Part shown: in pieces, positions 9,739-53,640 of the stretch
How positions within the stretch are numbered: position 1 is the stretch's first letter
How the letters are laid out: each line of letters begins with the position of its first letter
IMG/VR virus record: IMGVR_UViG_3300048822_000004
Coordinates: 1 to 54,261 of that record
Source of the DNA: a virus
Taxonomy: Duplodnaviria; Caudoviricetes
Strand: one strand, 5' to 3'
Length of the DNA: 54,261 bases
The notes under the pieces: model-generated
What the model was told of the DNA's origin: nothing
Databases searched by the model: none
What the model saw: only the letters and a program-made list of their open reading frames with translations
Position numbers and translations under genes: made by a program

Positions 9739-10123
9739 GACTTGGTACGCCAAACTTAAGAAAGACGGATTTAAGGATATAGAACAGGATGAAGACAATC
9801 TAAAGGTATGGTCTAATGTATTTATAAGACCAGATGCCAATGTAAAGAACAGAAATGACTACAACGCCAGACCTAAAAGTGTAAGACAAAAGAAAGATGA
9901 ATTCGAAGCAAAAAGAGACTATTACTATTACGCAGAACATTTCCTCACAAACCATAAATTCCAATCCGAAAGAGAAAGAATTATATGGGAATATCACGTC
10001 CATGGAGTTAGTGCTCGTAACACATCTAGACTATTAGAGAAAGTAAAGATTAACATTAGTAAATCAGCAGTGAACGATATAGTAAAGAAACTCCAAATAA
10101 TCATGAAAGACCAGCTAAAGTGA
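9710..10123 (+). CDS. HTH protein (sigma region-4-like); candidate late transcription regulator
   Basis: ERERIIWEYHVHGVSARNTSRLL...ISKSAVNDIVKKL resembles a sigma4/LuxR-type HTH. Confidence 0.55.
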   Translation: MAKPTKQLLKTWYAKLKKDGFKDIEQDEDNLKVWSNVFIRPDANVKNRNDYNARPKSVRQKKDEFEAKRDYYYYAEHFLTNHKFQSERERIIWEYHVHGVSARNTSRLLEKVKINISKSAVNDIVKKLQIIMKDQLK

Positions 10124-10404
10124 TAAAAGAAATAGGCGAAAATATAGAGAGTTTTCTTAATAAAAAAATAATTAAGATTAAAGGGTATGAAGAATTATTT
10201 ACACTCCATGGTGTATTTCGTTCAATTTCTTGGGATTCAACAGAGATGAGGTTCTTAAGTTATCCTAAAAAAGACTACTATGTGTTTATAACAATTTCAG
10301 ACCAAGAACTTATTGCCGCTAACAATATGTTACGAACACTTAACCACTATATAGAAATGCCTAATTTAACATGCCTAGAAAAAATTATTTATGACATCGA
10401 CTGA
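10120..10404 (+). CDS. Hypothetical protein with C-terminal LEKIIYDI tag
   Basis: Ends LTCLEKIIYDID; overlaps both neighbours. Confidence 0.7.
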   Translation: MIKEIGENIESFLNKKIIKIKGYEELFTLHGVFRSISWDSTEMRFLSYPKKDYYVFITISDQELIAANNMLRTLNHYIEMPNLTCLEKIIYDID

Positions 10405-10816
10405 GTTTTCAGAACATTACGACATCAGGGACTATCAGCCTTCAGATAAGAACTTCGTGCTTGCGACATTTCTACGAGGTGTTTATTACGGAGATAGTTG
10501 GTTTTCTCAAATCCGTAAAGACATATTTATGGATAACTATAAGCGTATAGCGGAATTCGCTATTGACTCAGGTAAGGTAACAGTTAAGGTGGCATGTCTG
10601 CGCGAAGACCCTGATATCATTATAGGTTATAGCATCCTTAGTTCAGACTTTCAAGCTGTTTCGTGGGTGTATGTAAAGAAAGCTTGGAGACTCAAAGGAA
10701 TAGCCAAAAGCCTTTTACCGAAATTTCCACAGTATATCACACACTTGACTAAGCTAGGACAAGAACTAATGCCTAAACTACCAACAGCGACTTTTAACCC
10801 ATTCTATGGCGCATAA
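10391..10816 (+). CDS. GNAT-family acetyltransferase
   Basis: IRDY...D; YVKKAWRLKGIAKSLL acetyl-CoA motif A. Confidence 0.75.
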   Translation: MTSTEFSEHYDIRDYQPSDKNFVLATFLRGVYYGDSWFSQIRKDIFMDNYKRIAEFAIDSGKVTVKVACLREDPDIIIGYSILSSDFQAVSWVYVKKAWRLKGIAKSLLPKFPQYITHLTKLGQELMPKLPTATFNPFYGA

Positions 10817-11006
10817 AATGGGAGTAGCTCAACTCGACCCAGGAGCATTGGCTAATGCGGCGGCCAATCAAAATCAGAAACTTAACAACAATCTGGGAAC
10901 TATAGTAACAACTCCTAAGTTTTGGAAAGAACAAGTAGAAAAACAGAGAATGGATGATTTCATAAAACAATGCGAAACAGTAACAAAGGAGACAAACAAT
11001 GTCTAA
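10806..11006 (+). CDS. Hypothetical protein (RxxxFIxxC family)
   Basis: Overlapping operon ORF; QRMDDFIKQCE. Confidence 0.55.
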   Translation: MAHKMGVAQLDPGALANAAANQNQKLNNNLGTIVTTPKFWKEQVEKQRMDDFIKQCETVTKETNNV

Positions 11007-11262
11007 GTTTTTTAAGTCCAAGAAAGTAAACCTAAATCCCGCTAAGCCAGAGCCGCGTAAGCTAGAAGATATTACGAAAGAGCTTAACAATGAATGCTGG
11101 GCTTTAGGTCAACTAGAATATCAGATCTACGTTCTTCAGCAAGAAGCAGAACGAAAAAACAAGAAAATCCAAGAGCTTAACTACGAAGGAGCTAGCCGTA
11201 AAGAATTAGACTCTAAAGCCGCCGCTGACGCCCCTAAGCAAGAGGTGTCGAATGGGAACTAA
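10999..11262 (+). CDS. Coiled-coil hypothetical protein
   Basis: RBS AAGGAG; heptad pattern. Confidence 0.7.
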   Translation: MSKFFKSKKVNLNPAKPEPRKLEDITKELNNECWALGQLEYQIYVLQQEAERKNKKIQELNYEGASRKELDSKAAADAPKQEVSNGN

Positions 11263-11479
11263 AATCAAGGAAGCAACATTGTCAGGGCCTATTCATACGA
11301 TTAAATCAGGTCATATCAAGAAAGAGCTTAGTAACCAAAATTCACCTACCCATAAGGCGGTAGGCATGGAGCTTAAGTCCATTGAAGGCGGCACTTTCGT
11401 AGAGCTTACTGTACAGCACTCAAAAGAGAAAATCCTTGTGCCTTATACAGACTTTCGCAATTTAGTCCCCGGTGAATAA
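11252..11479 (+). CDS. Hypothetical protein
   Basis: RBS GAGGTG; coupled to neighbours. Confidence 0.65.
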   Translation: MGTKIKEATLSGPIHTIKSGHIKKELSNQNSPTHKAVGMELKSIEGGTFVELTVQHSKEKILVPYTDFRNLVPGE

Positions 11480-13514: not shown

Positions 13515-13539
13515 TCAATTAAATACTATAGCACACGTT

Positions 13540-19403: not shown

Positions 19404-20705
19404 ATGGCAGCAGTATATGCTAATAGTAGCAACCAAATCGCTGCGTTAAAAGAATTGTATACCGACGATAAAGAGTATATGAAGGACCTTGTTTACAAGG
19501 AAAATCCCTTCCTAGCTCTTGTACCTAAGGATGAAAGCCCGGACGGCTTTGCGGGAAAATATATTCCCGTACCGCTCGAATACGGCAATCCTATGGGTCG
19601 TGCGCATACATTTGCTAACGCACAGAACCAACAAACCGCGACTTCACTCGTAAGCTATTTCGTTTACGTCATTCAAGATTACCAACTCGTGACTATCACG
19701 AACCTCTTGATGGAGCAAACGAAAACTAATGCAGGTGCATTCGTAGATGCAGCAAAGCTCCAAATGGATGGTGGCTTTCGCAATATCACGAATAACATCG
19801 CATTCGAACTCTTCGGTGATGGTACAGCGACTCGCGGTACTTCAACTGCGGCTTCGACACAAACCGGTGGCGTAGCAGTAGGCGGAGTAGTATTGCCTCT
19901 CACGAACGCGCAACAAATCGTGCAGTTCGAAGTAGGTCAACTACTCGTGGCTTCTGCAACTCCTGGCGGCGCACCTTCAGCAGACACCGTACTTGTTACG
20001 GCTGTGGATCGTGCAAACGGTATCGTATCTGGTACAGCTTCGGCAGCAGTTCTGTCGGCTAACTGGGCAATCGGTACTGGTAACGCCTACCTCTCGGTAT
20101 CTGGAGATATCCCGACTACTGGAGCGACGAATACAGGCTCATTCCTGGCATTGTCAGGTCTTGCAGCATGGATTCCGATCGCTACTCCGGCAGTAACGGA
20201 TAACTTCTGGGGTGTTAACCGTAGTGCAGACCCGACCCGTCTTGCAGGCCTGCGTTACAACGCAACTGCTCAGACGATCGAGGAAGGCATCACAAACGCA
20301 CTAGCATTCACTAACCGTGAAGGCGGTAAACCAGACCTTTGCATTATGGACTTTGCTTCATATGCAGCTCTAGTTAACGCTCTCGGCGCGAAAGTCCAAT
20401 ACGTTCAAGTCAACCACGATGAAGTAGAAGTAGCATTCGAAGGTATTACGTTCCAATCAGCATATGGTCGCGTAACGATCCTTGCTGACCGCTCGTGCCC
20501 TCCGACTACTGCATATCTATTGACGATGGCGACTTGGAAGCTTCGTTCATTAGGCAAAGTGCCTCATATTTTGACATATGGCATGGAAGGCCTCGAAGGT
20601 CTAAGAGTCGGAAACGCCGATGCTTTGGAGATTCGTATTGGCTATTACGGAAACCTAATCTGTAGTGCCCCGGGCTTCAATTGTGTGGTACAATTAAGTT
20701 CTTAG
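19404..20705 (+). CDS. Major capsid protein
   Basis: 433 aa after the scaffold; LKELY, NPFLALVPK, P..YG, GDG; strongly biased codon usage; followed by a terminator. Confidence 0.88.
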   Translation: MAAVYANSSNQIAALKELYTDDKEYMKDLVYKENPFLALVPKDESPDGFAGKYIPVPLEYGNPMGRAHTFANAQNQQTATSLVSYFVYVIQDYQLVTITNLLMEQTKTNAGAFVDAAKLQMDGGFRNITNNIAFELFGDGTATRGTSTAASTQTGGVAVGGVVLPLTNAQQIVQFEVGQLLVASATPGGAPSADTVLVTAVDRANGIVSGTASAAVLSANWAIGTGNAYLSVSGDIPTTGATNTGSFLALSGLAAWIPIATPAVTDNFWGVNRSADPTRLAGLRYNATAQTIEEGITNALAFTNREGGKPDLCIMDFASYAALVNALGAKVQYVQVNHDEVEVAFEGITFQSAYGRVTILADRSCPPTTAYLLTMATWKLRSLGKVPHILTYGMEGLEGLRVGNADALEIRIGYYGNLICSAPGFNCVVQLSS

Positions 20706-22124: not shown

Positions 22125-22355
22125 ATGCAGAAAATGGCTGAATTCAAAGTAGACGATACGGTAATAATGGTACACGCGGATAACTTATCACTTGTGGCTA
22201 GAGATCTTATTGGCGTTCCTCACCAAGTCATAGGAGTGATAGGAGATTGCTTATTAATTGACCCTCAAGATAAAAACCAAGGCTGGTTTGCATGGAGATT
22301 CATAAAAGCTACGGAATTGTCTCAACTCGAGAAAATAATTTACGATATCCCCTAA
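22125..22355 (+). CDS. Small SH3-like protein with LEKIIYDI tag
   Basis: FKVDDTV...GWFAWRF; ends LSQLEKIIYDIP. Confidence 0.7.
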   Translation: MQKMAEFKVDDTVIMVHADNLSLVARDLIGVPHQVIGVIGDCLLIDPQDKNQGWFAWRFIKATELSQLEKIIYDIP

Positions 22356-22409: not shown

Positions 22410-23513
22410 ATGATTATCAAGGATTTTAAAGAGAGTCTTCAGTATCTAACAAAAGCAGAACTAACCCCGTTCGTGTGGGGACATGCCGGGATTGGCAAGA
22501 CTGAGAGCATTAAGCAGTGGGCAGTAGAGAAAGGATATAAATTCTTTCCTTTCTACTTAGGTACGATGTCTGATACAGGCGATATACTAGGGCTTGCAGA
22601 GTTTACGAAACGAGCCAAGGGTGGTAAATCCACTGATTTCGCGCCTCCTGGATGGCTTCTTGATATGATAGACTACTGCAATGAAAACCCTGATTCTGGC
22701 GCAGTAGTCTTCCTAGATGAGTTTAACCGCGCTAGGAAAGATATCATGAACGGTATGTTCTCGTTTGCACTGGATAAGCGCTTCCATACTATACAGTTAC
22801 CTAAGAACTGTCATGTAATCGCTGCTGGTAATCCTCCTACGGATGAGTACTGCACTACTGATGTTGATGAAGCCGCTCTTATGGCTCGTTTCGTACATAT
22901 CAAGCTTGAGCCTTCGATTCAAGAATGGGTAGAGTACGCTAAAGACAGAAGCTTAGATAGTAATCTCATAGGTTTTATTCAAGATCAGCCTAATCTATTA
23001 GAAGACAAGCGATCAGAGTTTCTGCTGCCTATCAAGGTGGATCGTCGCGCCTACTCACGATTAGATAAGTTATTCAAGCTAAATACACCGGCGCATCTCA
23101 TGGAAAGCCTTATGCCTGGCATTATCGGTCTTGAAAGAACTATTGCTTATAAGCAATATCTCAAGGAAATCGATAAGCCGCTTACAGGAGAGCAAGTCCT
23201 TCGCCATGAAAGACCTGATCTCATCGAGAAGTGGAGTAATTCCGATAACGTAGCGGCTTCATTTCTTAACATCACCTGTGATAGCCTTGTCGAGGTACTT
23301 AATAAAAGAGATGCAGCTAAAGACCTCTTAAAGGCAGATGAAAAGAGTAATCTCATGTGGTTCTTGTCTGCAGCTCCTAAGGATATCTCCTATCGAGTTA
23401 TATACACGTTAGTGACCTCTAATAACTCATTATTTAAGAACTTCTTTACTGATGAGAAGTACGAGAAACAAATCGCGGAGCTTACGTTAGCCGCTAAAGG
23501 AAAGACTAAATAA
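22410..23513 (+). CDS. MoxR-like AAA+ ATPase
   Basis: GHAGIGKT, FLDEFNRA, AAGNP, AL.ARF. Confidence 0.9.
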   Translation: MIIKDFKESLQYLTKAELTPFVWGHAGIGKTESIKQWAVEKGYKFFPFYLGTMSDTGDILGLAEFTKRAKGGKSTDFAPPGWLLDMIDYCNENPDSGAVVFLDEFNRARKDIMNGMFSFALDKRFHTIQLPKNCHVIAAGNPPTDEYCTTDVDEAALMARFVHIKLEPSIQEWVEYAKDRSLDSNLIGFIQDQPNLLEDKRSEFLLPIKVDRRAYSRLDKLFKLNTPAHLMESLMPGIIGLERTIAYKQYLKEIDKPLTGEQVLRHERPDLIEKWSNSDNVAASFLNITCDSLVEVLNKRDAAKDLLKADEKSNLMWFLSAAPKDISYRVIYTLVTSNNSLFKNFFTDEKYEKQIAELTLAAKGKTK

Positions 23514-24673
23514 TGGAATTCAAGAATAAAGATGTCGTAAGCCAAGCCATAGTAAATCTATTCGAATCGGAAAGATTCTATGCTGAGCTGATATGTCAGA
23601 TGCGTAGATTCGTATCTGATAAGATACGAACGGCAGGGGTTTGTGTTAAAGATCAAATCGAACTCCACATAAACCCTGAGTTCTTCGAAAGTCTTACATT
23701 ACAAGAACGTGTATCTGTTCTTAAGCATGAATGCGAGCACATCCTTAGAGACCATATCGGCAGGGCTAAGGAACTAGCCCCAGATATTTACGATAATAAA
23801 AAGAAGGACTTAGAAGACAATATCATTAACAACATGAAGCACAAGACTTTAAATATTTCAATGGATTGTGCCATCAACGGCAATATGACTAACCTACCAG
23901 AAGGAGGAGTATTTCCTAAGCAATTCGATCTTGAGAATGGCCAAACCATGGAATGGTATCTAGCGCAGCTAAAAGACAATGAAAAAGCAAAGCAGCTCAT
24001 GAAATTCGATGATCATGAGCTTTGGGGCGAATCAGATGGTGATAAGGAAATCCTTAAAGAGAAGGTTCGTCAAGCCGTTAATAAGGCTGCTAAAAGTACT
24101 CGTGCGGCAGGTAAAATGACCGCAAACAATGAGCTACTCGTATCAGAACTCAACAAAGCCGTGGTGAATTGGCGCCAACAGCTCAAACGGTTCGCTGCAC
24201 GTACTATCGAGACTGCCCTAGACACTAGTAAAAAGAAAAGGAATCGCCGCTACGGTATATTATTTCCGGGTACTATAAAAACAGAAAGTCTTCATATAGG
24301 AGTTGCTATAGATACTTCTGGTAGCGTTTCTGATGAAAGTTTGAAACAATTCATGAGTGAAATCGGCAATATAGCTAAATATGCCAAAGTAACGGTTATT
24401 GAAGCAGACACAGAGATCAAGAACAGTTATATTTATGATCCTAAAAAGAAATACAGAGTCTCAGGCAGAGGCGGAACTGCTTACAAACCTGCCTTCGACT
24501 TCTTCAACGATAAAAATAATGAAGTAGACGCCATGATTTACTTTGGGGATATGGATTGTTATGATACAGAGGCTTTAATTAAGCCTAAATACCCTGTGTT
24601 ATGGGCTATAGTAGGAGGTCAAAATCCTCCAGCTAATTTCGGAGCACAAATCAGAATAGAGGTTAAAGATTAA
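23513..24673 (+). CDS. Metallopeptidase-like plus vWA domain protein (DUF2201-like), AAA+ partner
   Basis: HECEH (HExxH), D.AIN, MIDAS DTSGS, GRGGT, FGD. Confidence 0.88.
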   Translation: MEFKNKDVVSQAIVNLFESERFYAELICQMRRFVSDKIRTAGVCVKDQIELHINPEFFESLTLQERVSVLKHECEHILRDHIGRAKELAPDIYDNKKKDLEDNIINNMKHKTLNISMDCAINGNMTNLPEGGVFPKQFDLENGQTMEWYLAQLKDNEKAKQLMKFDDHELWGESDGDKEILKEKVRQAVNKAAKSTRAAGKMTANNELLVSELNKAVVNWRQQLKRFAARTIETALDTSKKKRNRRYGILFPGTIKTESLHIGVAIDTSGSVSDESLKQFMSEIGNIAKYAKVTVIEADTEIKNSYIYDPKKKYRVSGRGGTAYKPAFDFFNDKNNEVDAMIYFGDMDCYDTEALIKPKYPVLWAIVGGQNPPANFGAQIRIEVKD

Positions 24674-25191
24674 TGAGTGACAATAAAAAAATTGATTATT
24701 TCGAAAAGATAGGAAAACTACTCAATAAATCGCCAAAACCGATATATATTGCTTTTGCGCTGTACTGCGCTAGAGACCAACTCCATAATATTAAAGATAA
24801 AAACATCTACAATGAATGCCATAAAGCCTTAGCTATTACAGAGGCTTTTATTAAAGGCCAAGCCACTCAATCAGAAATAGAAGCAGCCTACAGCGCGGCC
24901 TACAGCGCGGCCAGCAGCTCGGCCTACAGCTCGGCCCACACGGCCCACGCGGCCAACAGCGCGGCCCACGCGGCCAGCAGCGCGGCCCACGCGGCACACA
25001 GCGCGGCCTACAGCGCGGCCTACAGCGCGGCCTACGCGGCCTACGTGGCCTACGTGGCCTACGCGGCCTACGCGGCCCACGCGGCCCACGCGGCCTATAA
25101 CAATAAATTAGAAGAGTATTTTGAAAAATTAGAGGATATGCTACGAAATCTACACAGAATTGAAAAAATAGTGTTTAATATATGCGATTAA
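24673..25191 (+). CDS. Ala-rich repeat protein, copy 1, with tag IEKIVFNI
   Basis: AAYS/AAH repeats; near-identical paralog at 42963..43466. Confidence 0.8.
   Translation: MSDNKKIDYFEKIGKLLNKSPKPIYIAFALYCARDQLHNIKDKNIYNECHKALAITEAFIKGQATQSEIEAAYSAAYSAASSSAYSSAHTAHAANSAAHAASSAAHAAHSAAYSAAYSAAYAAYVAYVAYAAYAAHAAHAAYNNKLEEYFEKLEDMLRNLHRIEKIVFNICD
24883..25098 (+). repeat. GC-rich 9/12-bp tandem repeats
   Basis: GCGGCC(T/C)AC and GCGGCCTACAGC units. Confidence 0.9.
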
Positions 25192-25811
25192 TTTTAATAC
25201 TCATATTCATACCTAGCGTATCGATTGCAAAACTAAGAGTTGCAGTACTAGACACTGGCGTAGATACAGAGATAACAAACGCTCCTTTGTGCTCTAAAGC
25301 ATCTCCTGACTCTAGCAATATAAAGCACGGGACTTCAATAGTTGATTTAATTGCTAAAAATGCAGGTAAAGCTGATTATTGCATAGAGTCTTATAGAATA
25401 TATACCAATAAATGGGATAAAAAGGCTTATTTCAATGTTCTTAGGTATTTACTAAAGAATCCACCAGATATCATTAACCTCAGTATTCAAGGCACAGGAG
25501 AAAGCCCCACAGAGACTAAACTCATTAAACAACTCCTCAACAAAGGCGTGACGATATTAGTAGCGGCTGGTAACTATGGAGAAGTCCTGTCTAAAAAGTC
25601 TTGTAATGTATACCCGGCTTGTGCTGATAACAGGATAATAGTTGTAGGTACATACTCGCCTAGCAGCGATAAAGGCGACAGGATTAACATACTTACCCAT
25701 AAAGACAGTGGGTGCGTTGGAGCTTATTGTTTGTCAGGAACTAGTCAAGCCACTGCAATAGAGACTGGCCGTTTCATTAATTTCTTGAGTACTAAGGAAA
25801 ACGCCAAGTAA
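25182..25811 (+). CDS. Exported subtilisin-like (S8) serine protease
   Basis: Signal peptide; VAVLDTG, HGT, AAGN, GTSQAT. Confidence 0.88.
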   Translation: MRLILILIFIPSVSIAKLRVAVLDTGVDTEITNAPLCSKASPDSSNIKHGTSIVDLIAKNAGKADYCIESYRIYTNKWDKKAYFNVLRYLLKNPPDIINLSIQGTGESPTETKLIKQLLNKGVTILVAAGNYGEVLSKKSCNVYPACADNRIIVVGTYSPSSDKGDRINILTHKDSGCVGAYCLSGTSQATAIETGRFINFLSTKENAK

Positions 25812-26037
25812 ACACTATTTTACGATCTACTATGGTTTGTCCAACAAAAGCCCCGCCTACCAAAAAGAATTTTTCATCGTTAGGCACGAGTTTACTCATA
25901 TCATTCAATGTCTTATTAATGCCGTCATTAGCGCCTGTGTAGCGAGCAAAGGCATCTGCAGACTTCTGTACAGATTTTCCGTTACTAGCAAGTCCTGCTG
26001 TGAATAGCATTATAAACAGTAAGGCATTAGATTCCAA
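25792..26037 (-). CDS. Hypothetical, possibly exported protein
   Basis: Hydrophobic N-terminus; start uncertain. Confidence 0.4.
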   Translation of the reverse strand: MESNALLFIMLFTAGLASNGKSVQKSADAFARYTGANDGINKTLNDMSKLVPNDEKFFLVGGAFVGQTIVDRKIVFTWRFP

Positions 26038-26239
26038 GAATCACCATGCCTGGATAGTCCACAGAATTGACAGGACGATCAGACCCGTCAAACACCACAA
26101 GTATGTCTGGCATACCTCTACCCGAGTATTCGATTTTAATGATTTCGCCTTCTCTATGGCTATCCCTATCGTAAACCCTAATACCAGGATAAAGAGAGTT
26201 AGGATCGACAGCACGCAATAACCTATTATTCTCATACAT
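26027..26239 (-). CDS. Small SH3/KOW-like protein
   Basis: PGIRVYD....EGEIIKI......ILVVFD; ATG 26239 lies just after a sigma70 promoter. Confidence 0.5.
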   Translation of the reverse strand: MYENNRLLRAVDPNSLYPGIRVYDRDSHREGEIIKIEYSGRGMPDILVVFDGSDRPVNSVDYPGMVILGI

Positions 26240-26245
26240 ATCTAT

Positions 26246-26273
26246 ATGATACACGAGTTGAAAAAAAAGTCAA
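26246..26273 (-). promoter_or_regulatory. sigma70-type promoter
   Basis: TTGACT-N16-TATCAT on the minus strand. Confidence 0.55.
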
Positions 26274-26280
26274 ATCCTGC

Positions 26281-26307
26281 TAAAGTAATTCCTAGGTCGA
26301 CCGATAA
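26281..26307 (+). promoter_or_regulatory. sigma28-type promoter
   Basis: TAAAGTAA-N11-ACCGATAA, followed by RBS GGAGGT. Confidence 0.7.
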
Positions 26308-26324
26308 GTACTATAGGAGGTAAC

Positions 26325-26555
26325 ATGGAATTCAATAAAACGTATAGTAATTGGGTAATGCATAATAAAGAGCATCTCAATATCAGAGAGGTAGAAACAC
26401 ACGGCAAGGATTTAAAGGACTTCTTAGCCAACGCCATGATTTATATAGAGACTTGGCACGGCGGGGAAGGTCCAGATTACAGTGTCGATGATCTTTCTAG
26501 TAAAGACTATGACATGCTTGTAAAAGAATTCACTGAATACTTGGAGGGAACATGA
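26325..26555 (+). CDS. Hypothetical acidic protein
   Basis: Strong RBS; first gene after the sigma28 promoter. Confidence 0.7.
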   Translation: MEFNKTYSNWVMHNKEHLNIREVETHGKDLKDFLANAMIYIETWHGGEGPDYSVDDLSSKDYDMLVKEFTEYLEGT

Positions 26556-26755
26556 GAGCAAGTAACGTAGTGAAATTAAACACTAAAATCAAACCAGACG
26601 ATAGCGGTGTCTATAGAACTAAGCATTTCTATAGAGATCAATACACTGCTATGTTTCAGCATATGAATAACATGATTAAGACATACGGTAAAGGCCAAGT
26701 AGCTATAATGATCCGCGATCTCATCGCATCGGGAGGATTGAATGGTAACGATTAA
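26552..26755 (+). CDS. Hypothetical protein
   Basis: GGAGG RBS, ATGA overlap. Confidence 0.65.
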   Translation: MRASNVVKLNTKIKPDDSGVYRTKHFYRDQYTAMFQHMNNMIKTYGKGQVAIMIRDLIASGGLNGND

Positions 26756-26927
26756 AAAGATTGAAACACCTAACTACGTAATTTTGTTAGAAGAAACTGA
26801 GGACTGTCGTTACATAGTAAGATATAAGAGATCTTCAATGGAAGAATACTCATACTTTAGCTTCCAGGATTACAAGTTCGCCAGCGAGATGTTCGACTAT
26901 AATTTAATAGCATTGGAGGGCCATTGA
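26742..26927 (+). CDS. Hypothetical protein
   Basis: GGAGG RBS. Confidence 0.65.
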   Translation: MVTIKKIETPNYVILLEETEDCRYIVRYKRSSMEEYSYFSFQDYKFASEMFDYNLIALEGH

Positions 26928-27020: not shown

Positions 27021-27081
27021 ATTATGACCAAAAAGTATATATTTTAGCTATTCTAGCCTGTTTTTTAGCTATAGGTGTGAT

Positions 27082-39930: not shown

Positions 39931-42675
39931 ATGGACTTTGATAGTCTACCTAATGATGCTGCAACACCTGCTACGCCTACACCTGCTCCAACTGGAACGC
40001 CTACACAGAATACGCAGCCCCCAGTTAGTTTTGACTCCTTGAAAGACGACTCAGAAACCTATGGAACACCAGGTCAGCAAGCCATTGCAGGTTTGGAAGG
40101 CGTAGGTCGTGGTCTATTAGGACCTTTAGCTACAGGAGCTGAGCGGATATTTGATGTACCAGCCCAGGATATCTTGGCTCGTCAAAAGGCTAATCCCTGG
40201 ACTGCAGGTATAGGCGAAGCCGCAGGTCTTACAGGAGGGCTGCTTACAGGCACAGGCGAGGCCGCCTTGATGACCAAGGCAGGCGAGCTAGGTGTGGAAG
40301 GCCTGGGGCTTGCTACGAAGGCTGGTGAGGCTACTAGCCTTGCCCATAAGATAGGCTCATCTGCTGTGCAGCAAGCCATAGAGATGGGCGTACTGTCAGG
40401 TTCAGATGAGACTAGTAAGCTTATCTTGCAAGATCCCAACACCAGTGCCGAGTCAGCATTAGCTAATATAGGAATAGGTTCAGCTATAGGGGCAGCATTT
40501 GGTGCTACAGGCGCTGTGGTTAGTCCTTTATGGAAGGCTACGTTTGGTCCTAAGCTAGAGGAATTCCTTAATGCAGCTAAGAACCAAGTAGACGGAAAAA
40601 GCATGATAGCCCTTTCTGAGGGCGTCAGTAAAGACCTAGAGACATTGGGTGTAAATCCCACAGCCCTTCAGCGTGCCGACCTTTCCGATACGCCATTCGT
40701 TACTGATAAAGTAGCTAATCTTAAGCGTTCCGAGAATGCCTCAATGCTTGCCGAACAGGAAGCTTTGAAAAAGCAAGTCTCTGATTCCGTGCTACAGCCT
40801 TTAGGCTCCAATTTAGAAGATCTCAAAGTCTACGATAACGATGATGCGGGACGTCAAATCGCAGGTAAGATCAACGATAAGATCAAGGAAACTTTTGAGC
40901 CTCTCTGGAAAGGCATGGACGAACGCAATGCCACGGCAGCTAAACTACCTACTTCGGATGATTCAAAGTTGGCACTAATGGATAGACTTAGAGAGCGAGG
41001 TGTAACGGACTTCGCTCCTAATTCACCGCATGCCGATCTATTCTACGATGCCGGTGAGAGACAACTCTCTTTTAAAACCATTGCAGACTTTGATAAATAC
41101 GATTCAGAACTTCGTGGCGCCTTAAGTAAGGCATCTCGTTCCGGCGACTTTGAAGAAGCCAAGGCCTATTCAACTATCCGAAATATGCTTAAAGACTATA
41201 AAAACCAAGTCATCGCATCGTCGGCAGATAATGCCGAACGGGCAGGTGTTATAGGCGCAGGAGATGCAGGCGCTAACCTCATCGCATCTCGCAATGCCTT
41301 AAATAAAGAATACGCCATGGCTGAGGCTGTACGCGAACAGCTCGGAGATCATTTCAATATAAATTCTAGGAATTCCAGAGATTTCATGAAACAGCTCACA
41401 GAGAATATGACACCTGAACAGGTCCTAAAGAAATTCTCGATTAAAAACAACATGGACGGGGCTAGATTCTTACAAGAGAATTTTCCTGAAGCATTTCAAG
41501 AAGTAATCAAGAATGAACGTCGCGCAATCCTTAAACCAGCCATAAACGAAGCTGGAGATATAAACGTAAATAAACTAGGAACCATCATAGACAAGACTAA
41601 GGCTGGTAAAGACTCTTATCTCAAAACGATACTACCTCAGGAATTCCTAGATAGAGCAGAAGCTGGTAGCCGTGTGTTGAAACAAATCACTAGCCCTAGA
41701 GACAGCGGCACACCCGCAGGTCTATGGGGAATTGTAAAGCATTTAGGCGGCTCTGCTATGGGAGCTGCAGGTCTTTTAATGGGCCATAATCCTTTGGCAT
41801 ACGTAGTGGCTGGTGAAGCCGCAGCGCGTCTTGGCAAGGAAGGCCCAGAGGCAGCTAGGCTTGCACTACTTCGTTTCATGGGATCTACAGAACCTATCGA
41901 CGCTCCTGGCTTTAAAGCCATGGCTAACTTCATTAGTAATGTAAAAAAGAACCAAGACACCCTGTCCAACGCCGTTAAAAATACCCTGAAGCCAGGCGCA
42001 ATGGTATTGGCTCGTAATGCCATACCTGATAGTTCGGATAGAGAAAAACTAGAGAAATCACTTAGTAAAGTCCAAAATCAGCCCAATCAGTTCGCGCAAG
42101 GCCAGAATAGTGAACTCGGTCATTACATGCAACAACACCAGCAAGCCGTCTCAGCCACGCAAACCAGAGTTGCTCAATACCTACAAAACTTAAAGCCTAA
42201 GACTAATCAGCCTGGTGTTTTAGATAAGACTATAGAGCCTACAAAGGCAGAGAAGTCTCGTTATGCCAGAGCACAAGACATCGCTATTAATCCCAATGTA
42301 GTACTTGCTCGCATCAAGAATGGCTCGCTTCAAGCTTCTGATATCCAAGATCTAAACGGCATGTATCCTGGTCTTTATAACCAGATGATGCAAAAGCTCA
42401 CTAATGAAATAGGGAGTATGCAATCCGAGAATGGCATGATTCCGTACAAGACCAGGATGTCTTTAAGCCTATTCCTAGGTAATCCTTTAGACGCTACAAT
42501 GCAGCCCATGTCTATACAATCCGCACAGATGGCATTACAGCCCCAGCAACAGCCACAACAACAGGGTAAGCCTAAGAAAGTAACTAAAGAAGCCGGCAAA
42601 GGACTTCAAAAAGGTGCGGTTAAGTATCAGACTTCTGATCAGGCGGCTGAGTCGGATCGATCTTCTCGAGAATAG
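39931..42675 (+). CDS. Internal virion/ejection protein 3
   Basis: 914 aa, helical, G/A-rich hydrophobic segments. Confidence 0.68.
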   Translation: MDFDSLPNDAATPATPTPAPTGTPTQNTQPPVSFDSLKDDSETYGTPGQQAIAGLEGVGRGLLGPLATGAERIFDVPAQDILARQKANPWTAGIGEAAGLTGGLLTGTGEAALMTKAGELGVEGLGLATKAGEATSLAHKIGSSAVQQAIEMGVLSGSDETSKLILQDPNTSAESALANIGIGSAIGAAFGATGAVVSPLWKATFGPKLEEFLNAAKNQVDGKSMIALSEGVSKDLETLGVNPTALQRADLSDTPFVTDKVANLKRSENASMLAEQEALKKQVSDSVLQPLGSNLEDLKVYDNDDAGRQIAGKINDKIKETFEPLWKGMDERNATAAKLPTSDDSKLALMDRLRERGVTDFAPNSPHADLFYDAGERQLSFKTIADFDKYDSELRGALSKASRSGDFEEAKAYSTIRNMLKDYKNQVIASSADNAERAGVIGAGDAGANLIASRNALNKEYAMAEAVREQLGDHFNINSRNSRDFMKQLTENMTPEQVLKKFSIKNNMDGARFLQENFPEAFQEVIKNERRAILKPAINEAGDINVNKLGTIIDKTKAGKDSYLKTILPQEFLDRAEAGSRVLKQITSPRDSGTPAGLWGIVKHLGGSAMGAAGLLMGHNPLAYVVAGEAAARLGKEGPEAARLALLRFMGSTEPIDAPGFKAMANFISNVKKNQDTLSNAVKNTLKPGAMVLARNAIPDSSDREKLEKSLSKVQNQPNQFAQGQNSELGHYMQQHQQAVSATQTRVAQYLQNLKPKTNQPGVLDKTIEPTKAEKSRYARAQDIAINPNVVLARIKNGSLQASDIQDLNGMYPGLYNQMMQKLTNEIGSMQSENGMIPYKTRMSLSLFLGNPLDATMQPMSIQSAQMALQPQQQPQQQGKPKKVTKEAGKGLQKGAVKYQTSDQAAESDRSSRE

Positions 42676-42962: not shown

Positions 42963-43466
42963 TTACTCATTGATGTTATAAATTATTCTTTCAATTCTGT
43001 GTAGATTTCGTAGCATATCCTCTAATTTTTCATAATACTCTTTTAATTTATTGCCTCTGGCCACGTAGGCCGCGTAGGCCGCGTAGGCCACGTAGGCCAC
43101 GTAGGCCGCGTGGGCCGCGCTGTAGGCCGCGCTGCTGGCCGCGCTGTAGGCCGCGCTGTGTGCCGCGTGGGCCGCGCTGCTGGCCGCGTAGGCCGCGTGG
43201 GCCGCGCTGCTGGCCGTGCTGCTGGCCGCGCTGTAGGCCGCGCTGTGTGCCGCGCTGTAGGCTGCTTCTATTTCTGATTGAGTGGCTTGGCCTTTAATAA
43301 AAGCCTCTGTAATAGCTAGGGCTTTATGGCATTTATTGTAGATGTTTTTATCTTTAATATTATGGAGTTGGTCTCTAGCGCAGTACAGCGCAAAAGCAAC
43401 ATATATTGGTTTTGGCGATTTATTGAGTAGGTTTTCTATTTCTTCGAAATAATCAATTTTTGCCAT
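42963..43466 (-). CDS. Ala-rich repeat protein, copy 2, with tag IERIIYNI
   Basis: Paralog of 24673..25191; RBS GGAGG; own sigma70 promoter. Confidence 0.8.
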   Translation of the reverse strand: MAKIDYFEEIENLLNKSPKPIYVAFALYCARDQLHNIKDKNIYNKCHKALAITEAFIKGQATQSEIEAAYSAAHSAAYSAASSTASSAAHAAYAASSAAHAAHSAAYSAASSAAYSAAHAAYVAYVAYAAYAAYVARGNKLKEYYEKLEDMLRNLHRIERIIYNINE

Positions 43467-43541: not shown

Positions 43542-43572
43542 TTTATAAGCTCTTATCCCACAAGGAAGGCAT

Positions 43573-43944
43573 ATGGCATCTCGCCCTTTAGCTGGCCCCT
43601 ACTCCGTTATAACGAACGCCAGCATGACTACAAGCGTCACATCTACGCCAACTATAATCCAAAATCTATCAATGATCGGCTATGATATCTCATGGACCGG
43701 CACGCCTACAGGCACATTTTCAATACAAATATCAAATACTTATGCTCTTAACGCCGCTGGAGTAGTGACTAACCCCGGCGATTGGACTACCGTTACTCTC
43801 AGCACAGTACCAGCTGCTACAGGCAGTCCAGGAAACGGTTTCATCGACATTGACGCTATGAGTGCCTATGCTATTCGCCTTGTTTATACCGCTGTTTCAG
43901 GCACAGGCGTCTTAAACGCAGTAGTTTCAGCTAAGGTTACATAA
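43573..43944 (+). CDS. Small beta-sandwich virion protein (paralog of 45469)
   Basis: WTG.P.G.F.IQ.SN...W...RL.YTA.SGTG. Confidence 0.7.
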   Translation: MASRPLAGPYSVITNASMTTSVTSTPTIIQNLSMIGYDISWTGTPTGTFSIQISNTYALNAAGVVTNPGDWTTVTLSTVPAATGSPGNGFIDIDAMSAYAIRLVYTAVSGTGVLNAVVSAKVT

Positions 43945-45461
43945 TGAGTCAGTTCTACGCTAAATACCCTGTATTAGGGGGCACAGGTGTTACTGGTCTG
44001 AATGGTTTGACAGGCTCCCTTACCCTTGTAGCTGGCGCTGGTATATCTGTTACTCCTTCTGGCACTAACATTACTATTACTAATACATCGCCTAGCTTAG
44101 GCGGAACTGTAACGAACTTCTCTTTTACTAATGGGAACGGCTTTACAGGTACCGTAACTAATCCTACTACGACTCCTGCCTTATCTCTTACTGGAAGGCT
44201 GACAGGAGATATTACTGGAACACTTACAGCCACGGCTTTAACAGCTACGACTAATAGCACACTCACAACGCTTTCGGCATTGTCATTGCCGTATTCTCAA
44301 TTAACTGGAGCTCCTACACCTCTGACTTTTACTTTGCCTCTTGTAAACACGTCCGGAACAGTTTCAGCAAACGTTTTTACTGGGCCGCCGCTTATTACAG
44401 GAGCTATCACATGGACGGCAGTTACAGGCGCTACGACTGGTTCTGGCGGGAGTATTACAGATACCGCTACTAGCGGATGGGGAAATTCAGGCGCGTTTTC
44501 ATCTCAAAGCTTTACGAGTGGCAGCATTATTTCCTTTACTTTTTTGGCGGGAACTGTAGGACTTTGCGGATTTAGTGCCACTAACACAGGTAATGCAGAT
44601 ACCGATGTACAATTCGGAATTAATTTCTCAAGCGGCTATGCAATTATTTATGAAAATGCAGTAAATAAATATTCTATAGGTCCAAGCACAACATCGGATG
44701 TCTTTAGTATTCAATTGTATTTAGGACAAGTAACCTATTATAAGAATGGTACTCTTGTTTATACTTCTTTAGCAGTGCCAGCTTCTACGCTGTATGGTAA
44801 GACTTCAATTCACGATAACGGTACTGGTCTTTCATCTGCATCTTTCAGTATGCCAGGAGTAACTAATGGCACTAGTGGTATCGTACCAGCGCCGCTTGCA
44901 GGTCAAGAAAATTACTTTTTACAAGGAAATGGTAGTTGGGGCTTAGTTCCTTCAAGTTATGCAAACCAAAGTCTTTCGAACTTGACGTCTCCTACGTCAG
45001 TAGGACAGGATTTACTATCGAACGGTACTACGATGTTAGGCGAACTCGGAACGCCTTGGCCTAATGAATACATCACTACATTATCCGTAACCTCTGCGGG
45101 TTACGTTTGGGGTACTCTTAATTCTAATGTAAACACAGGATTCGGTATACAAAGTATGTTTCCTGGGAATAGCGCTAACCCAGGTGGGCCACTTTCTATA
45201 ACTACTATTAATACACCTACTTATGCGTCAGGCAATATTACTATAGCAACAGGCAATGCATCTAGTTCTACTTCTGGTAATATAGTGCTACAAACAGGAA
45301 CGGCTTCTACTACTAGAGGCTCGATTCAGCTAAACGCCTTGTATGCTGTACTGCCTATGCAAACTACAGATCCTACAGGGACAGCGGGTGCTATTTACTA
45401 TAACACTACTAGCAATACGATTAGATGGTATAACGGAACTGTCTGGGCTACTTTAGTTTAA
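43944..45461 (+). CDS. Tail fibre with a lectin/SPRY-like central domain
   Basis: T/S/G-rich repeats; W...GAFS...V.YYKNG.LVYTS; C-terminal GAIYYNT......YNG..W. Confidence 0.7.
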   Translation: MSQFYAKYPVLGGTGVTGLNGLTGSLTLVAGAGISVTPSGTNITITNTSPSLGGTVTNFSFTNGNGFTGTVTNPTTTPALSLTGRLTGDITGTLTATALTATTNSTLTTLSALSLPYSQLTGAPTPLTFTLPLVNTSGTVSANVFTGPPLITGAITWTAVTGATTGSGGSITDTATSGWGNSGAFSSQSFTSGSIISFTFLAGTVGLCGFSATNTGNADTDVQFGINFSSGYAIIYENAVNKYSIGPSTTSDVFSIQLYLGQVTYYKNGTLVYTSLAVPASTLYGKTSIHDNGTGLSSASFSMPGVTNGTSGIVPAPLAGQENYFLQGNGSWGLVPSSYANQSLSNLTSPTSVGQDLLSNGTTMLGELGTPWPNEYITTLSVTSAGYVWGTLNSNVNTGFGIQSMFPGNSANPGGPLSITTINTPTYASGNITIATGNASSSTSGNIVLQTGTASTTRGSIQLNALYAVLPMQTTDPTGTAGAIYYNTTSNTIRWYNGTVWATLV

Positions 45462-51114: not shown

Positions 51115-51121
51115 ATATCAC

Positions 51122-51157: not shown

Positions 51158-51175
51158 AGATACTCCTAGAATTAA
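51153..51175. repeat. 23-bp direct repeat (second copy at 51708..51730)
   Basis: TTCATAGATACTCCTAGAATTAA identical at both sites. Confidence 0.9.
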
Positions 51176-51447
51176 ATCCCAGACCTAAACCTAGACCCAG
51201 ACCAAGACCCAGACCAAGACCCAGACCAAGACCCAGACCAAGACCCAAACCAAGACCCAAACCAAGACCCAGACCCAGACCCAGACCCAGACCCAGACTC
51301 AGACCAAGACCCAGACCCAGACCAAGACCCAGACCCAGACCTAGACCAAGACCTAGACCCAGACCCAGACTCAGACCTAGACCTAGACCCAGGCCAAGAC
51401 CCAGACCCAGACCTAGACCTATTTCGGTAACTTTTAGGACTAACCAT
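51172..51447 (-). CDS. Low-complexity (S-G/S-R/S-W)n protein encoded by hexamer repeats
   Basis: AGACC(C/A/T) tandem array; ATG 51447 overlaps the upstream gene end. Confidence 0.6.
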   Translation of the reverse strand: MVSPKSYRNRSRSGSGSWPGSRSRSESGSGSRSWSRSGSGSWSGSGSWSESGSGSGSGSGSWFGSWFGSWSGSWSGSWSGSWSGSRFRSGI

Positions 51448-51712
51448 TTTTAGACTTTCCAAATGATTCGATTAGATTAGTTTGTACATACCATTCTTTA
51501 GTATGAAGCTTCTGAATATCTGCGTAATTTTTATCAGACCATGTTCCTGTAGCGTATACGATGGCAGGATCTTTTAATTTAACAAAAGTTTTATTAACTC
51601 CTGTAAGTTTTCCTTCATAAAAATATCCGGCGCACATAAGTAGTACGCGTTCGCCTAACAACGCGTCTAATCCTTCTCCTTCAACTTCTTGAACTTGAAC
51701 TAGTTTTTTCAT
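51440..51712 (-). CDS. Sm/LSm-like small beta-barrel protein
   Basis: L..LLGERV......YFYEGKL.GV....V.L.D; RBS AGGAG. Confidence 0.65.
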   Translation of the reverse strand: MKKLVQVQEVEGEGLDALLGERVLLMCAGYFYEGKLTGVNKTFVKLKDPAIVYATGTWSDKNYADIQKLHTKEWYVQTNLIESFGKSKNG

Positions 51713-51726
51713 AGATACTCCTAGAA

Positions 51727-52395
51727 TTAATGAGTGAAAGCAAAAGCCGGTACTGGAGATAAAGTTCCCAACCCGGCGTTAGTCGGCCCTTGCCACTTCA
51801 ACGTGAGGCCAATCTGGGTCGGCAAGCTTTGGAAGTACAATAGATTAAATTTATGTTGACCTGCAAATAACTGTACATTATTAACCACAGTCGTTGGATA
51901 GTCTTGAGATTCCGGCATGTTGATGAGCACGACGTTATCAATAGCTAGCTCAGAACCGTCATCACTAGACAATGAAAATGTGTAGAGTCCAGTTTCAGAT
52001 ACTGAAATATATCCATAACAATCCAAAGCCCAGTTAGTAGTACCTAATTCGGTGGCTTGCGTAGGTGTAATACCATTAAACACAGCCGTGTCTAAAGTCT
52101 GTGGATTATCAAGACTAGGTAAAACGGCATCTGTAAACAACAACGTGCCAGTAGAATACAAAGTGTCCCAGTTTACTGTGCCTTGATACGAAGCCGTAGT
52201 AATGGCATATCCATCACACGCGATGCCAGGGCTAATGCCGCTATTTCCTTGAGGGCCGGTAGCTCCTACCGCGCCTTGAGGACCTGTCGCGCCAATAGAA
52301 CCTGCAGGCCCGGTAGGACCAGCCGGAATTGACTGGAATGAGTCGTCTGCACATCCCATAAGACCTAACGCTAAAATCACTATTACTGTTTTCAT
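51727..52395 (-). CDS. Lipoprotein with collagen-like repeats and a PA14 domain
   Basis: Lipobox LMGC; (G-x-y)n; G.YTF.L.SDDGS.L.ID, G.H...L.YFQ, L.W.GP. Confidence 0.85.
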   Translation of the reverse strand: MKTVIVILALGLMGCADDSFQSIPAGPTGPAGSIGATGPQGAVGATGPQGNSGISPGIACDGYAITTASYQGTVNWDTLYSTGTLLFTDAVLPSLDNPQTLDTAVFNGITPTQATELGTTNWALDCYGYISVSETGLYTFSLSSDDGSELAIDNVVLINMPESQDYPTTVVNNVQLFAGQHKFNLLYFQSLPTQIGLTLKWQGPTNAGLGTLSPVPAFAFTH

Positions 52396-53411
52396 ATTCC
52401 CTCCTTGTGGGTCAGTTCTAACTTTAAAGGAGTTACACCGTATTCGTCAAGGAGAATCTTTTTCTGGGCATTATAATGTCTCATTAAAAACCTATGGCTT
52501 CTATCCTTGAATATAATTACTTTGGCGGATGTTTTATCTTGATACTTTCTTACTGCCCTACCTATTTGTTGCTGAAACTGACTTTTGGCTTTGCCTAGAC
52601 CTGCTATTACTACATACTCGCACGGCTTAGTGTCTATGCCCTCTCCTAGTATGCCTGTAGTACCTATGAGTGTCTTTATTCCGCCATTATTGAATTGGCG
52701 GATATAATCCCTGGATTCTTCGTCTTCGCCCGATATGAAAGGAAAGCCCGTGAGCTCAGACAGTATCTTTCCATGAGCTACCTCTTTTACTAAGCATAGC
52801 GTGGGAGCGTCTAACCGACCTAACAACGCGCCTATCATGATATTCCTGGTTTCATTATTTATTACAAGATTGTCATAGACTTCTCGGTATGTAAAGGCAT
52901 CTGTGGCTTGTTTAGGCACTTCTAGGTAATAGGCTTCTACTGGAACTATATAACCTCTAGTTATGGCATCTATATAGTTTAGCTTATAGATTACTTCTCC
53001 GCAGATGGCCTCAAAAAGCAAGGTTTCCTCGTCGTCGTTTCTGAAAGGTGTCGCAGTAAGCATGAAGCGGTAGTAGATGCCTCCCCAAACCCTTTTATTT
53101 AGCCTGCGGTACGTTTTAGCAGCTGCATGGTGTGCCTCGTCTAAGATCAATACAGAGAATCTCATGGTGAGGCTATTAAGGGCGTTAGAATCGATATTTT
53201 CAACAGTTACATAATTGAGATCAGATAGAACGTATTGCATTTGGCGTTTTATCTCAAGCGTTGGTACTACTACTAAAGTAGGAAGTCCTAGAGCTTCTAT
53301 AATCATGCGCGCTACATGGGTTTTACCAGTGCCCGTAGGCATTGATATAATGCCTCTGTGATGTTTTAATGCTGCCTTTACGGCTTTATTTTGATCTAAG
53401 TAAGGCTTCAT
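52392..53411 (-). CDS. SF2 DEAH helicase core (UvsW-like)
   Basis: PTGTGKT, DEAH, TAT, EGID, QQIGRAVR. Confidence 0.92.
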   Translation of the reverse strand: MKPYLDQNKAVKAALKHHRGIISMPTGTGKTHVARMIIEALGLPTLVVVPTLEIKRQMQYVLSDLNYVTVENIDSNALNSLTMRFSVLILDEAHHAAAKTYRRLNKRVWGGIYYRFMLTATPFRNDDEETLLFEAICGEVIYKLNYIDAITRGYIVPVEAYYLEVPKQATDAFTYREVYDNLVINNETRNIMIGALLGRLDAPTLCLVKEVAHGKILSELTGFPFISGEDEESRDYIRQFNNGGIKTLIGTTGILGEGIDTKPCEYVVIAGLGKAKSQFQQQIGRAVRKYQDKTSAKVIIFKDRSHRFLMRHYNAQKKILLDEYGVTPLKLELTHKEGI

Positions 53412-53640
53412 CTATGTCGTATATAATGTTTTCTAGTTTGGTGCCATGGTATTCTGTATCTTCTTTAGCAATACTGTAAGATGCCCAGCTTTCTTCCTTT
53501 GTAACTGTATTTTCAGAGTCGTATATGTACTTATAAAATACTCTATTTTCTTCTTTTTCGATACGAGTCACTTCGTATATAATAAACCTATTAACTGGCA
53601 CTTTAAACCAATAGCGAATACCGACTTTAAACTCTTTCAA
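53386..53640 (-). CDS. Small SH3-like protein with LENIIYDI tag
   Basis: FKVG..YW...; TKLENIIYDID near the C-terminus. Confidence 0.68.
   Translation of the reverse strand: MKEFKVGIRYWFKVPVNRFIIYEVTRIEKEENRVFYKYIYDSENTVTKEESWASYSIAKEDTEYHGTKLENIIYDIDEALLRSK

Follow-up and report, generated by a model that had tools for sequence, protein, structure and literature searches.

MoxR-type AAA+ ATPases paired with vWA-domain proteins are, to our knowledge, widespread in cells and phages, and it is mostly unknown how these pairs recognise their clients. In the MoxR-vWA ternary conflict systems the pair is accompanied by a zincin peptidase and by a small, fast-diverging protein whose conserved C-terminal peptide is released; peptides of the FxSxx-COOH, RxD and acidic types are linked to such systems, and the vWA MIDAS site binds an extended or unstructured peptide (Kaur, Burroughs, Iyer, Aravind, eLife 2020, PMC7159879, in the part of that paper available to us). 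Among phages, the jumbo phages of group 2.2 carry a MoxR gene together with a gene for a vWA protein with an N-terminal metallopeptidase, and a chaperone/co-chaperone function with peptidolytic processing has been proposed for them (Iyer et al., Viruses 2021, PMC7824862, likewise in part). Here we report on a short peptide resembling LEKIIYDI (hereafter the tag), which ends several small proteins of a tailed phage (Duplodnaviria; Caudoviricetes; IMG/VR record IMGVR_UViG_3300048822_000004), and on its association with a gene pair of this kind. The record is a single contig of 54,261 bases that represents a complete 54-kb phage genome, and the whole of it is referred to as the window; G and L numbers are our handles for related genomes and loci.

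A preliminary description of the window had proposed that the tag is an address label docking diverse accessory proteins on one receptor. Our data uphold a strictly C-terminal element, selected as a peptide, that is carried by at least two unrelated folds and recurs in related phages; the diversity of the protein bodies had been overstated, and of the roles suggested there, nothing points specifically to export, capsid loading or degradation. New is a concrete candidate for the receptor, proposed from sequence: the phage's own gene pair for a MoxR AAA+ ATPase and a zincin-vWA protein.

The C-terminal tag and its carriers

A regular expression for the motif applied to the six-frame translation of the window gave seven matches, which are the seven copies listed in the preliminary description. 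They lie on both strands, as had been noted, and all end 1-8 residues before a stop codon (core positions 10375-10398, 22326-22349, 25159-25182, 26991-27014 and 27277-27300 on the plus strand; 42972-42995 and 53413-53436 on the minus strand). In 200 mononucleotide shuffles of the window a relaxed expression gave a mean of 0.06 matches (maximum 1), and the C-terminal enrichment over shuffled controls is thus borne out. The codons quoted earlier are correct, and among 168 pairwise comparisons of the eight core codons in the seven copies 48 were identical, 65 differed synonymously and 55 differed in the amino acid; for 28 copies (378 pairs) the corresponding numbers were 869, 999 and 1156. The abundance of synonymous differences indicates that the constraint acts on the peptide, as originally suggested. 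DNA flanking the tag is alike only between two paralogs of the Ala-repeat family described below.

Beyond the window the tag is present in five IMG/VR contigs, and the six contigs together hold 39 C-terminal copies (window 7, G001 8, G002 9, G003, also L028, 2, L214 7 and G006 6), besides one copy in G001 that lacks its stop codon and one variant in G003. The consensus of the 39 copies is [TS]-x-L-E-[KR]-[IL]-[ILV]-[YFWL]-[NDG]-[IV], followed by 1-8 variable residues. Glu is invariant (39/39), though the expression also permitted Asp; Leu is found in 37/39 and K/R in 38/39 (after the Glu there is K in 24 copies, R in 14, N in one and Q in none), and T or S stands two residues before the Leu, a position outside the expression, in 37/39. 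Core position 7 has a family flavour: N prevails in the Ala-repeat proteins, the small proteins often have G or D there, and 10/39 copies have Gly. Across 2.26 Mb of related loci at least 28 of 34 matches lie within 10 residues of a stop codon, a lower bound since the expression used for this count accepted only D, N, E or S at core position 7 and so overlooked the Gly copies. The S/T-x-x-E spacing matches a helix N-capping box, and structure models of an Ala-repeat and of a small carrier both place a short helix at the tag; we read the motif as a short, N-capped amphipathic alpha-helix at the very C-terminus, as the models predict.

The tag is rare outside this phage group. A pattern scan of IMG/VR returned at least 120 stretches, and among the matches listed 39 of 120 were near a stop codon, with only L028 and L070 credible. 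For the peptide LEKIIY[DN]I there were 59 stretches and 40 in-frame matches; five of the 40 passed the C-terminal filter, four in G001 and G003 and one in a hydrophobic open reading frame (ORF) that does not resemble the tagged proteins. A search of 1.84 billion representatives with a profile built on 13 small tagged proteins found 16 proteins, 13 being queries or near-copies and the three new ones all ending in the tail. In three unrelated viral contigs from IMG/VR (L379, L383 and L385) the sequence ENTLEKIIYNI is found in SNF2-like helicase ORFs, about 30 residues before the C-terminus, either by chance or as a related motif.

Two sets of proteins carry the tag. Ala-repeat proteins, 130-210 residues long, have a conserved N-terminal helical part, variable Ala-rich four-residue repeats and a conserved end, K.K.YY..L..ML..L[TS].LEKII.NI. 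The two in the window are paralogs, as described before (81% identical). An AlphaFold2 (AF2) model of the 167-residue paralog (predicted local distance difference test, pLDDT, 82.6) is all-alpha with seven helices and a short last helix, residues 157-162, which is the tag; this helix is separate and its block has a pLDDT of 66. The top structural match in BFVD is a phage 'Imm-5-like domain-containing protein' (TMq 0.65, root-mean-square deviation 2.4 Å, E 3.9e-3), and a fold search against the PDB gave no match at E <= 0.001. The same paralog scores 17 bits (E 0.0055) against Pfam Imm5_like PF21805, below the cut-off of 25, and the 172-residue paralog does not match PF21805. PF21805 was found on 19 of 103 listed sequence relatives; of these 103 the 13 closest have the tail and distant ones have variants, e.g. 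AEKLLLG and FERMLLGI. PHROG and Pfam matches of the Ala-repeat proteins stop short of the tail. A single-protein search of IMG/VR with an Ala-repeat protein found nothing, and the Ala-repeat alignment found no relatives in 185,579 prokaryote species genomes. Weak Imm5-like Ala-repeat ORFs (E ~1e-5) with another kind of ending occur in relatives that lack MoxR (Table 1).

Small carriers, 60-100 residues long, include about one half with an N-terminal 'EFKVGD' strand. Against leave-one-out body profiles 11 of 23 small bodies are weakly homologous (E < 0.03), and the other 12, including the 94- and 74-residue proteins of the window, gave no match. The alignment of the small proteins (A2) has, besides Met1, only L68, E69, I71 and I75 as invariant columns. 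The AF2 model of the 76-residue protein is of low confidence (pLDDT 54), with four strands and a helix at residues 67-72; an SH3-like barrel, the fold named in the preliminary description for some of the bodies, would have five strands. Small carriers gave no Pfam, PHROG or NCBIfam match except one weak PHROG match, and in the ESM Atlas they matched unnamed clusters only, with DUF4314 as a lead (20% of members, score 0.89). When the small-protein and Ala-repeat profiles were aligned with hhalign, the alignment was confined to 17 tail columns (probability 94%, E 1.4e-7), so the tag is common to at least two scaffolds that the profiles and models identify as unrelated folds, and the carriers are, as first claimed, not homologous over their full length. 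The earlier statement that the bodies differ stands for the two folds; two of the small proteins of the window belong to one 'EFKVGD' group.

Table 1. Tagged genes and the MoxR/zincin-vWA pair of the window, with repeat proteins of relatives
Feature	Location	Strand	Length	C-terminal tail	Remarks
Small tagged protein	10120-10404	+	94 aa	NLTCLEKIIYDID	Body without detectable relatives
Small tagged protein	22125-22355	+	76 aa	ELSQLEKIIYDIP	'EFKVGD' beta-rich group
MoxR-type AAA+ ATPase	22410-23513	+	367 aa		Pfam AAA_5 24.5 bits (cut-off 22); candidate tag-receptor component
DUF2201_N zincin-like metallopeptidase fused to DUF2201 vWA	23513-24673	+	386 aa		Candidate tag receptor/processing enzyme
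Ala-repeat all-alpha Imm5-like protein	24673-25191	+	172 aa	NLHRIEKIVFNICD	phrog_18326, E 4.8e-11
Remnant without start codon	26928-27020	+	30 codons	...KITELERIIWEID	
Small tagged protein	27082-27306	+	74 aa	EVTLLEKIIYDIL	Body with one near-copy (P0014), otherwise no detectable relatives
Second Ala-repeat Imm5-like protein	42963-43466	-	167 aa	NLHRIERIIYNINE	In tail-gene region
Small tagged protein	53386-53640	-	84 aa	HGTKLENIIYDIDEALLRSK	'EFKVGD' group
Repeat paralogs (examples)	G005: 1668-1883, 2130-2363, 27789-27977, 30774-30971, 32030-32266, 41574-41916				MTKHKQLN-(DQLW/DQLR)n-QLEGQEYD
Weak Imm5-like Ala-repeat ORFs	G012: 7930-8442, 8755-9282; G013: 43566-44210; L154: 14895-15398			...KQEKLIRTI[IV]LKYW[KR]	In relatives without MoxR

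The gene for the 94-residue protein overlaps its neighbours on both sides, and a homologue search with its residues 55-94 returned only itself (2/2 candidates). The 84-residue protein has an 8-residue extension that overlaps the start of the downstream helicase gene (52392-53411). A tagged remnant exists as reported, with a span that begins at 26928 and not at 26924. It lies in the same frame as, and directly behind the TGA stop of, the ORF at 26742-26927; in G002, L214 and G003 a full Ala-repeat tagged gene follows the ortholog of this ORF, which identifies the remnant as the 3' end of a deleted Ala-repeat gene. Read-through of the TGA at 26927 would give a 92-residue tagged protein; we judge the in-frame join to be probably a chance effect of the deletion. 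PADLOC and NCBIfam gave no matches for the tagged proteins and their neighbours. Overlapping the end of the 172-residue Ala-repeat gene is a gene for a short S8 subtilase (25182-25811, 209 residues) with an N-terminal signal-like hydrophobic segment, present in G001, G002 and L214 and not in G006, and the same island has a tail-less ORF of 75 residues (26027-26254, minus strand; 62-79% identical in G001, G002 and L214), which looks like a small beta domain.

Co-distribution with a MoxR/zincin-vWA gene pair

The window has genes for DNA polymerase, primase-helicase, terminase, portal, scaffold, major capsid protein (MCP, 19404-20705) and tail. The GenBank phage collection yielded no relative, whether searched with DNA or with the capsid protein. 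In IMG/VR at least 163 contigs, many complete at 50-60 kb, encode a 65-92% identical capsid protein, which makes the window a member of a large uncultured phage group. Two sets were used for comparison: 16 complete or near-complete relatives plus two fragments, against which all 71 window ORFs were compared with tblastn, and 80 loci around relatives of the MCP gene, with 8,877 ORF C-termini.

In the matrix of 71 window ORFs against 17 relatives, only two ORFs are present in all five tag-bearing relatives and in none of the 11 tag-less complete genomes (G004 and G007-G016), the MoxR gene and the zincin-vWA gene. The MoxR protein matches the PHROG 1297 ATPase (E 9e-49), scores 18.2 bits against bpMoxR (under the cut-off of 27) and has the AAA domains of Midasin as its nearest solved sequences (E 2.6e-12). 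Its partner scores 78.8 bits for DUF2201_N (cut-off 23.2) and 59.6 bits for the DUF2201 vWA (cut-off 26.4), and both the HExxH residues (H72, E73, H76) and the MIDAS-type DxSxS residues (D267, S269, S271) are invariant in 7/7 orthologs.

The two genes abut at 23513, and the pair has a tagged gene directly next to it in all six contigs. In the recurrent arrangement a small tagged gene comes first, followed by MoxR, the vWA-peptidase and an Ala-repeat tagged gene; in the window the first of these ends 55 nucleotides (nt) upstream of the MoxR gene and the last begins where the vWA-peptidase gene stops. In G002 and L166 the MoxR and vWA-peptidase genes have a tagged ORF between them. Tag copies far from this island (in the window those at 10120, 42963 and 53386; also in G001, G002 and G006) are found only in genomes that have the pair.

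Searching IMG/VR with the MoxR protein alone gave three loci, and a hidden Markov model (HMM) search of the 80 capsid-related loci gave five more with the MoxR/vWA genes (L146, L150, L151, L159 and L166). Beside the pair these five have helical or small ORFs with tails of the same type in different wording, e.g. LSKLEKILIFG, LSKVEKAVYGI, LCKLERLALGV and MDEFEREIRRK. A survey of C-termini in related phages had been recommended in the preliminary description, and it points to the same genes: when a tail HMM was run on the last 24 residues of the 8,877 ORFs, the 15 best scores all came from five of the eight MoxR/vWA loci. These eight loci comprise 147 kb; the other 974 kb gave only ranks 16 and 17, both from L170. 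The tail variants in other MoxR/vWA lineages include LEKLLL[ND]I (G006), xEKAIYG[IV] (L159) and LE[RL]xALGV (L151).

G005 has a 30-34% identical MoxR/vWA pair and no tag. In this genome (L210-L212) we observed at least eight small paralogs of a repeat protein (Table 1), homologous over their whole length, some lying around the pair and others elsewhere in the genome; possibly they form a client family of a different kind that is analogous to the tagged proteins.

Prediction of a complex of the vWA-peptidase, MoxR and a small tagged protein scored 0.63, 0.63 and 0.60. Replacing the partner gave 0.00 in both controls and replacing chain 1 gave 0.49; the required margin was not reached, and we take the prediction as evidence neither for binding nor against it.

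A few features of these genomes were noted in passing. In nine relatives (L149, L153, L157, L158, L160, L162, L170, L178 and L182) the MCP match extends over about 1,850-1,950 nt and not 1,296 nt, which suggests that about 600 nt have been inserted (an intron, intein or endonuclease gene). Positions 51172-51462 of the window hold a tandem repeat of hexanucleotide type with several open frames on either strand (GSWSGS / PDQDPD / TQTKTQ / RPRPRP), and the 96-residue ORF called there is probably no gene. G004 (L207-L209) has DNA repeats common to both contig ends (1-700 and 54600-55200) and to an internal 2-kb region (25100-27100), noticed as common ORF ends in several frames.

A candidate recognition handle and its alternatives

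We suggest that the phage's own MoxR/vWA-zincin machine uses the tail as a recognition handle, a reading to which we give a probability of roughly 40%. It is favoured by the co-distribution, the adjacency of the genes, the intact active sites, the invariant Glu beside a hydrophobic helical face, and two precedents (the MoxR-vWA ternary systems and the jumbo-phage pair; see below). On this reading two diversifying sets of proteins, Imm5-like Ala-repeat helical and small beta-rich, would be engaged through the tag by the MoxR ATPase and its zincin-vWA partner. The helix would dock, by its invariant Glu and its hydrophobic face, on the vWA/MIDAS domain, the peptidase module or the MoxR ring, after which the ATPase would remodel either the tagged protein or a partner bound to its variable body; clipping of the tagged protein by the zincin domain would take place instead of this or as well. 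The tagged proteins could thus be clipped or timed substrates, or adaptors bringing bound targets. A bolder version, which we consider rather improbable, is a self-contained phage 'adaptor and handle' system in which two hypervariable families of binders, small beta-barrels and Imm5-like repeats with toxin-neutralising relatives, each capture a different host protein (e.g. a defence effector) and the tag delivers them to the MoxR/vWA-zincin machine for unfolding or proteolysis, with lineage-specific tags co-evolving with the machine. It is the most interesting version because the bodies diverge fast against a fixed tail and one carrier is akin to immunity proteins.

Several observations weigh against the handle reading. 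The co-distribution clusters by phylogeny. On portal and DNA-polymerase trees built for 16 genomes the window groups with G001 and G002, G006 falls elsewhere between tag-less genomes, and the tag needs just two changes, a number equalled in 12 of 500 label shuffles. The pattern therefore corresponds to about two independent events and is suggestive, not statistical. Whole genes and not tails alone co-occur with the pair, and much of the pattern could therefore stem from one accessory island inherited from a common ancestor. G017 (L170; 37 kb, 75% complete) has two Ala-repeat proteins ending in SELEKLLL(FN) and no MoxR match, and is either a real exception or a decaying remnant. Around distant MoxR genes, 77 loci (1.06 Mb) gave no Ala-repeat match and no plausible tail; five loose matches to the expression were found there, just one of them on an ORF of at least 45 residues, and this ORF is unrelated. 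The link thus does not hold for phage MoxR/vWA-peptidase modules in general. Common C-termini in distant MoxR/vWA-peptidase loci were found only in L220 (G005), where they belong to a different repeat family, and 27 other loci had none above noise. The tail in distant Imm5-like proteins looks like an ancestral part of the family. A vWA-peptidase was found in one of 47 short metagenome contigs with distant Ala-repeat proteins (L331, 7 kb, where it lies 5 kb from two such genes), the others being too short to judge. Finally, the tag is predicted to be helical, in contrast to the extended or unstructured peptides bound by MIDAS in the available part of PMC7159879.

The island lies within the structural block, between the MCP gene and the tail genes. 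A MoxR-vWA pair is required for tail development in an archaeal virus and an assembly role has been proposed for the jumbo-phage pair (PMC7824862, in part), so that a virion or capsid targeting peptide comparable to encapsulin cargo peptides or the T4 capsid targeting sequence comes into question; it is a long shot, as the 11 complete relatives have 74-87% identical capsid proteins and no tag, and the capsid protein is therefore not a sufficient receptor. The pattern could also arise if the tail were a short linear motif recognised by a protein of the host, such as a protease adaptor, sliding clamp, RNA polymerase or chaperone, and the MoxR/vWA link reflected inheritance of one accessory gene set. 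Short terminal motifs on unrelated proteins are the usual form of host-hub binding, three of the seven window copies lie outside the MoxR island, and the few changes on the tree and the tails of G017 fit as well; we think this explanation unlikely, while taking it seriously. The hydrophobic core positions 4, 6 and 8 of the tag recall the hexapeptide clamp-binding pattern QLxLxL, yet the position of the required Gln is K, R or N in 39/39 copies. No host is known, the 185,579 prokaryote genomes searched are without an Ala-repeat relative, and the tail shifts between lineages along with the divergence of the MoxR/vWA pair, which a conserved host hub would not obviously demand.

Two explanations dispense with a separate receptor. 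The tagged proteins might hetero-oligomerise via their C-terminal helices, given that every tag-bearing contig has at least two copies and that the tail of the Ala-repeat proteins extends a hydrophobic pattern with a spacing of 3-4 residues (YY..L..ML..L[TS].LEKII.NI). Yet only about 10 residues are conserved in the small proteins, and the helix, with its T/S cap sometimes preceded by Pro, would at 2.5 turns be too short for a stable coiled coil; mutual binding also leaves the co-distribution with MoxR/vWA unexplained and is a doubtful alternative. Still more doubtful is a tail without any common partner, which would simply be the last helix of two old phage families, conserved in the service of folding or stability and passed on by vertical descent. 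It would account for the homologous tail regions of distant Imm5-like relatives (e.g. ..QWEYYxELLxFDDIAEKLLLG), for the family flavour at position 7 and for the weak homology of about half of the small bodies, but folding needs hardly explain the same 10-residue pattern on all-alpha and beta-rich scaffolds; no other part of these proteins is nearly as well conserved as the tail, their bodies having diverged too far for homology to be detected, and in the Ala-repeat model it is a separate, less confident helix. That the repeat is a nucleic-acid element (site, RNA, or recombination/gene-conversion tract) translated by chance is hardly credible: the recurrence itself speaks for it and nothing further, against the many synonymous codon differences, the in-frame position of all copies at ORF ends on both strands, and flanking DNA that is conserved only between two paralogs.

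The MoxR/vWA-peptidase pair itself is of a known kind, and the tag as an observation is well established; the mechanism is a proposal. The phage group offers a compact, testable case, with a portable 10-residue tag, 7-9 natural carriers per genome, a candidate machine next to them, and 11 sister phages with neither tag nor machine as natural controls. If the handle reading is true, the tag would be a recognition code for a MoxR/vWA-peptidase, would give a function to the phage versions of the pair, and might become a tool for tag-directed remodelling or cleavage; the adaptor version would amount to a viral modular targeted-remodelling system. Should the link fail, the tag would still be an unusually clean short linear motif kept on phage proteins that are unrelated, and its true partner should be found through it.

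Comparison with described systems

Encapsulin cargo-loading peptides, the C-terminal clamp-binding tails of T4 and the ssrA degron are terminal address labels for one receptor. The tag resembles them as a short C-terminal peptide on diverse proteins and differs in sequence, and no clamp or encapsulin-type receptor was identified for it. An ssrA-type degron has conserved extreme C-terminal residues with a free carboxylate (LAA-COOH), which the tag with its 1-8 variable residues after the motif does not have; the bacterial beta-clamp motif has a leading Gln in QL[SD]LF or QLxLxL, and Q never stands at the matching position in the 39 copies. As to the carriers, the Ala-repeat proteins resemble Imm5 (PF14423) and Imm5_like (PF21805), immunity families of polymorphic toxin systems, and differ in scoring below the Pfam threshold, in having no toxin partner and in a tail that lies outside the matches.

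The MIDAS domain of Midasin (Rea1) recognises a conserved Glu on its assembly-factor clients, presented on a folded ubiquitin-like domain. Common to Midasin and the tag system are a MoxR-clade AAA+ ATPase and an invariant acidic residue on the client or, here, the candidate client, the tag Glu being present in all copies; the Glu of the tag stands on a terminal helix and not on such a domain. In pre-60S assembly Midasin is described as binding ribosomal protein (PMC7159879, in part). The jumbo-phage pair has the same two-gene architecture in a phage, and no client tag or family is described in the available part of that account (PMC7824862), in contrast to the tagged carriers here. Since the MoxR/vWA pair occurs in a minority of similar 50-60 kb phages, it is dispensable for virion assembly in this group.

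The preliminary description had held that this is not a described system. For the motif, its carriers and their link to the pair we found no description in the literature searched (coverage was incomplete and supplements were excluded), but the principle has a described analogue. The window pair shows a MoxR-clade ATPase, an adjacent MIDAS-type vWA and an N-terminal HExxH zincin, as far as sequence can tell. The tag, predicted to be helical, fits none of the FxSxx, RxD and acidic types, and an FtsH-associated type is named without a motif in the available part of PMC7159879. The FxSxx type has a radical-SAM/SPASM maturase; Radical_SAM PF04055 gave no match in the phage genome and matches in 14/14 control genomes. 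VMAP, FtsH, beta-propeller and AP-ATPase were not among the matches of 26 Pfam-scanned window ORFs, with no search aimed at each. By analogy, the closest described counterpart is the FxSxx-COOH peptide systems of the MoxR-vWA ternary systems, which likewise combine MoxR and vWA with a zincin-like metallopeptidase and, nearby, a small diverging protein with a conserved C-terminal peptide. Those systems are found in loci of actinobacteria and multicellular prokaryotes (PMC7159879, in part), whereas the tag system is found in a phage, with the peptidase fused to the vWA domain and with up to nine tagged genes per genome, on both strands and on two unrelated scaffolds.

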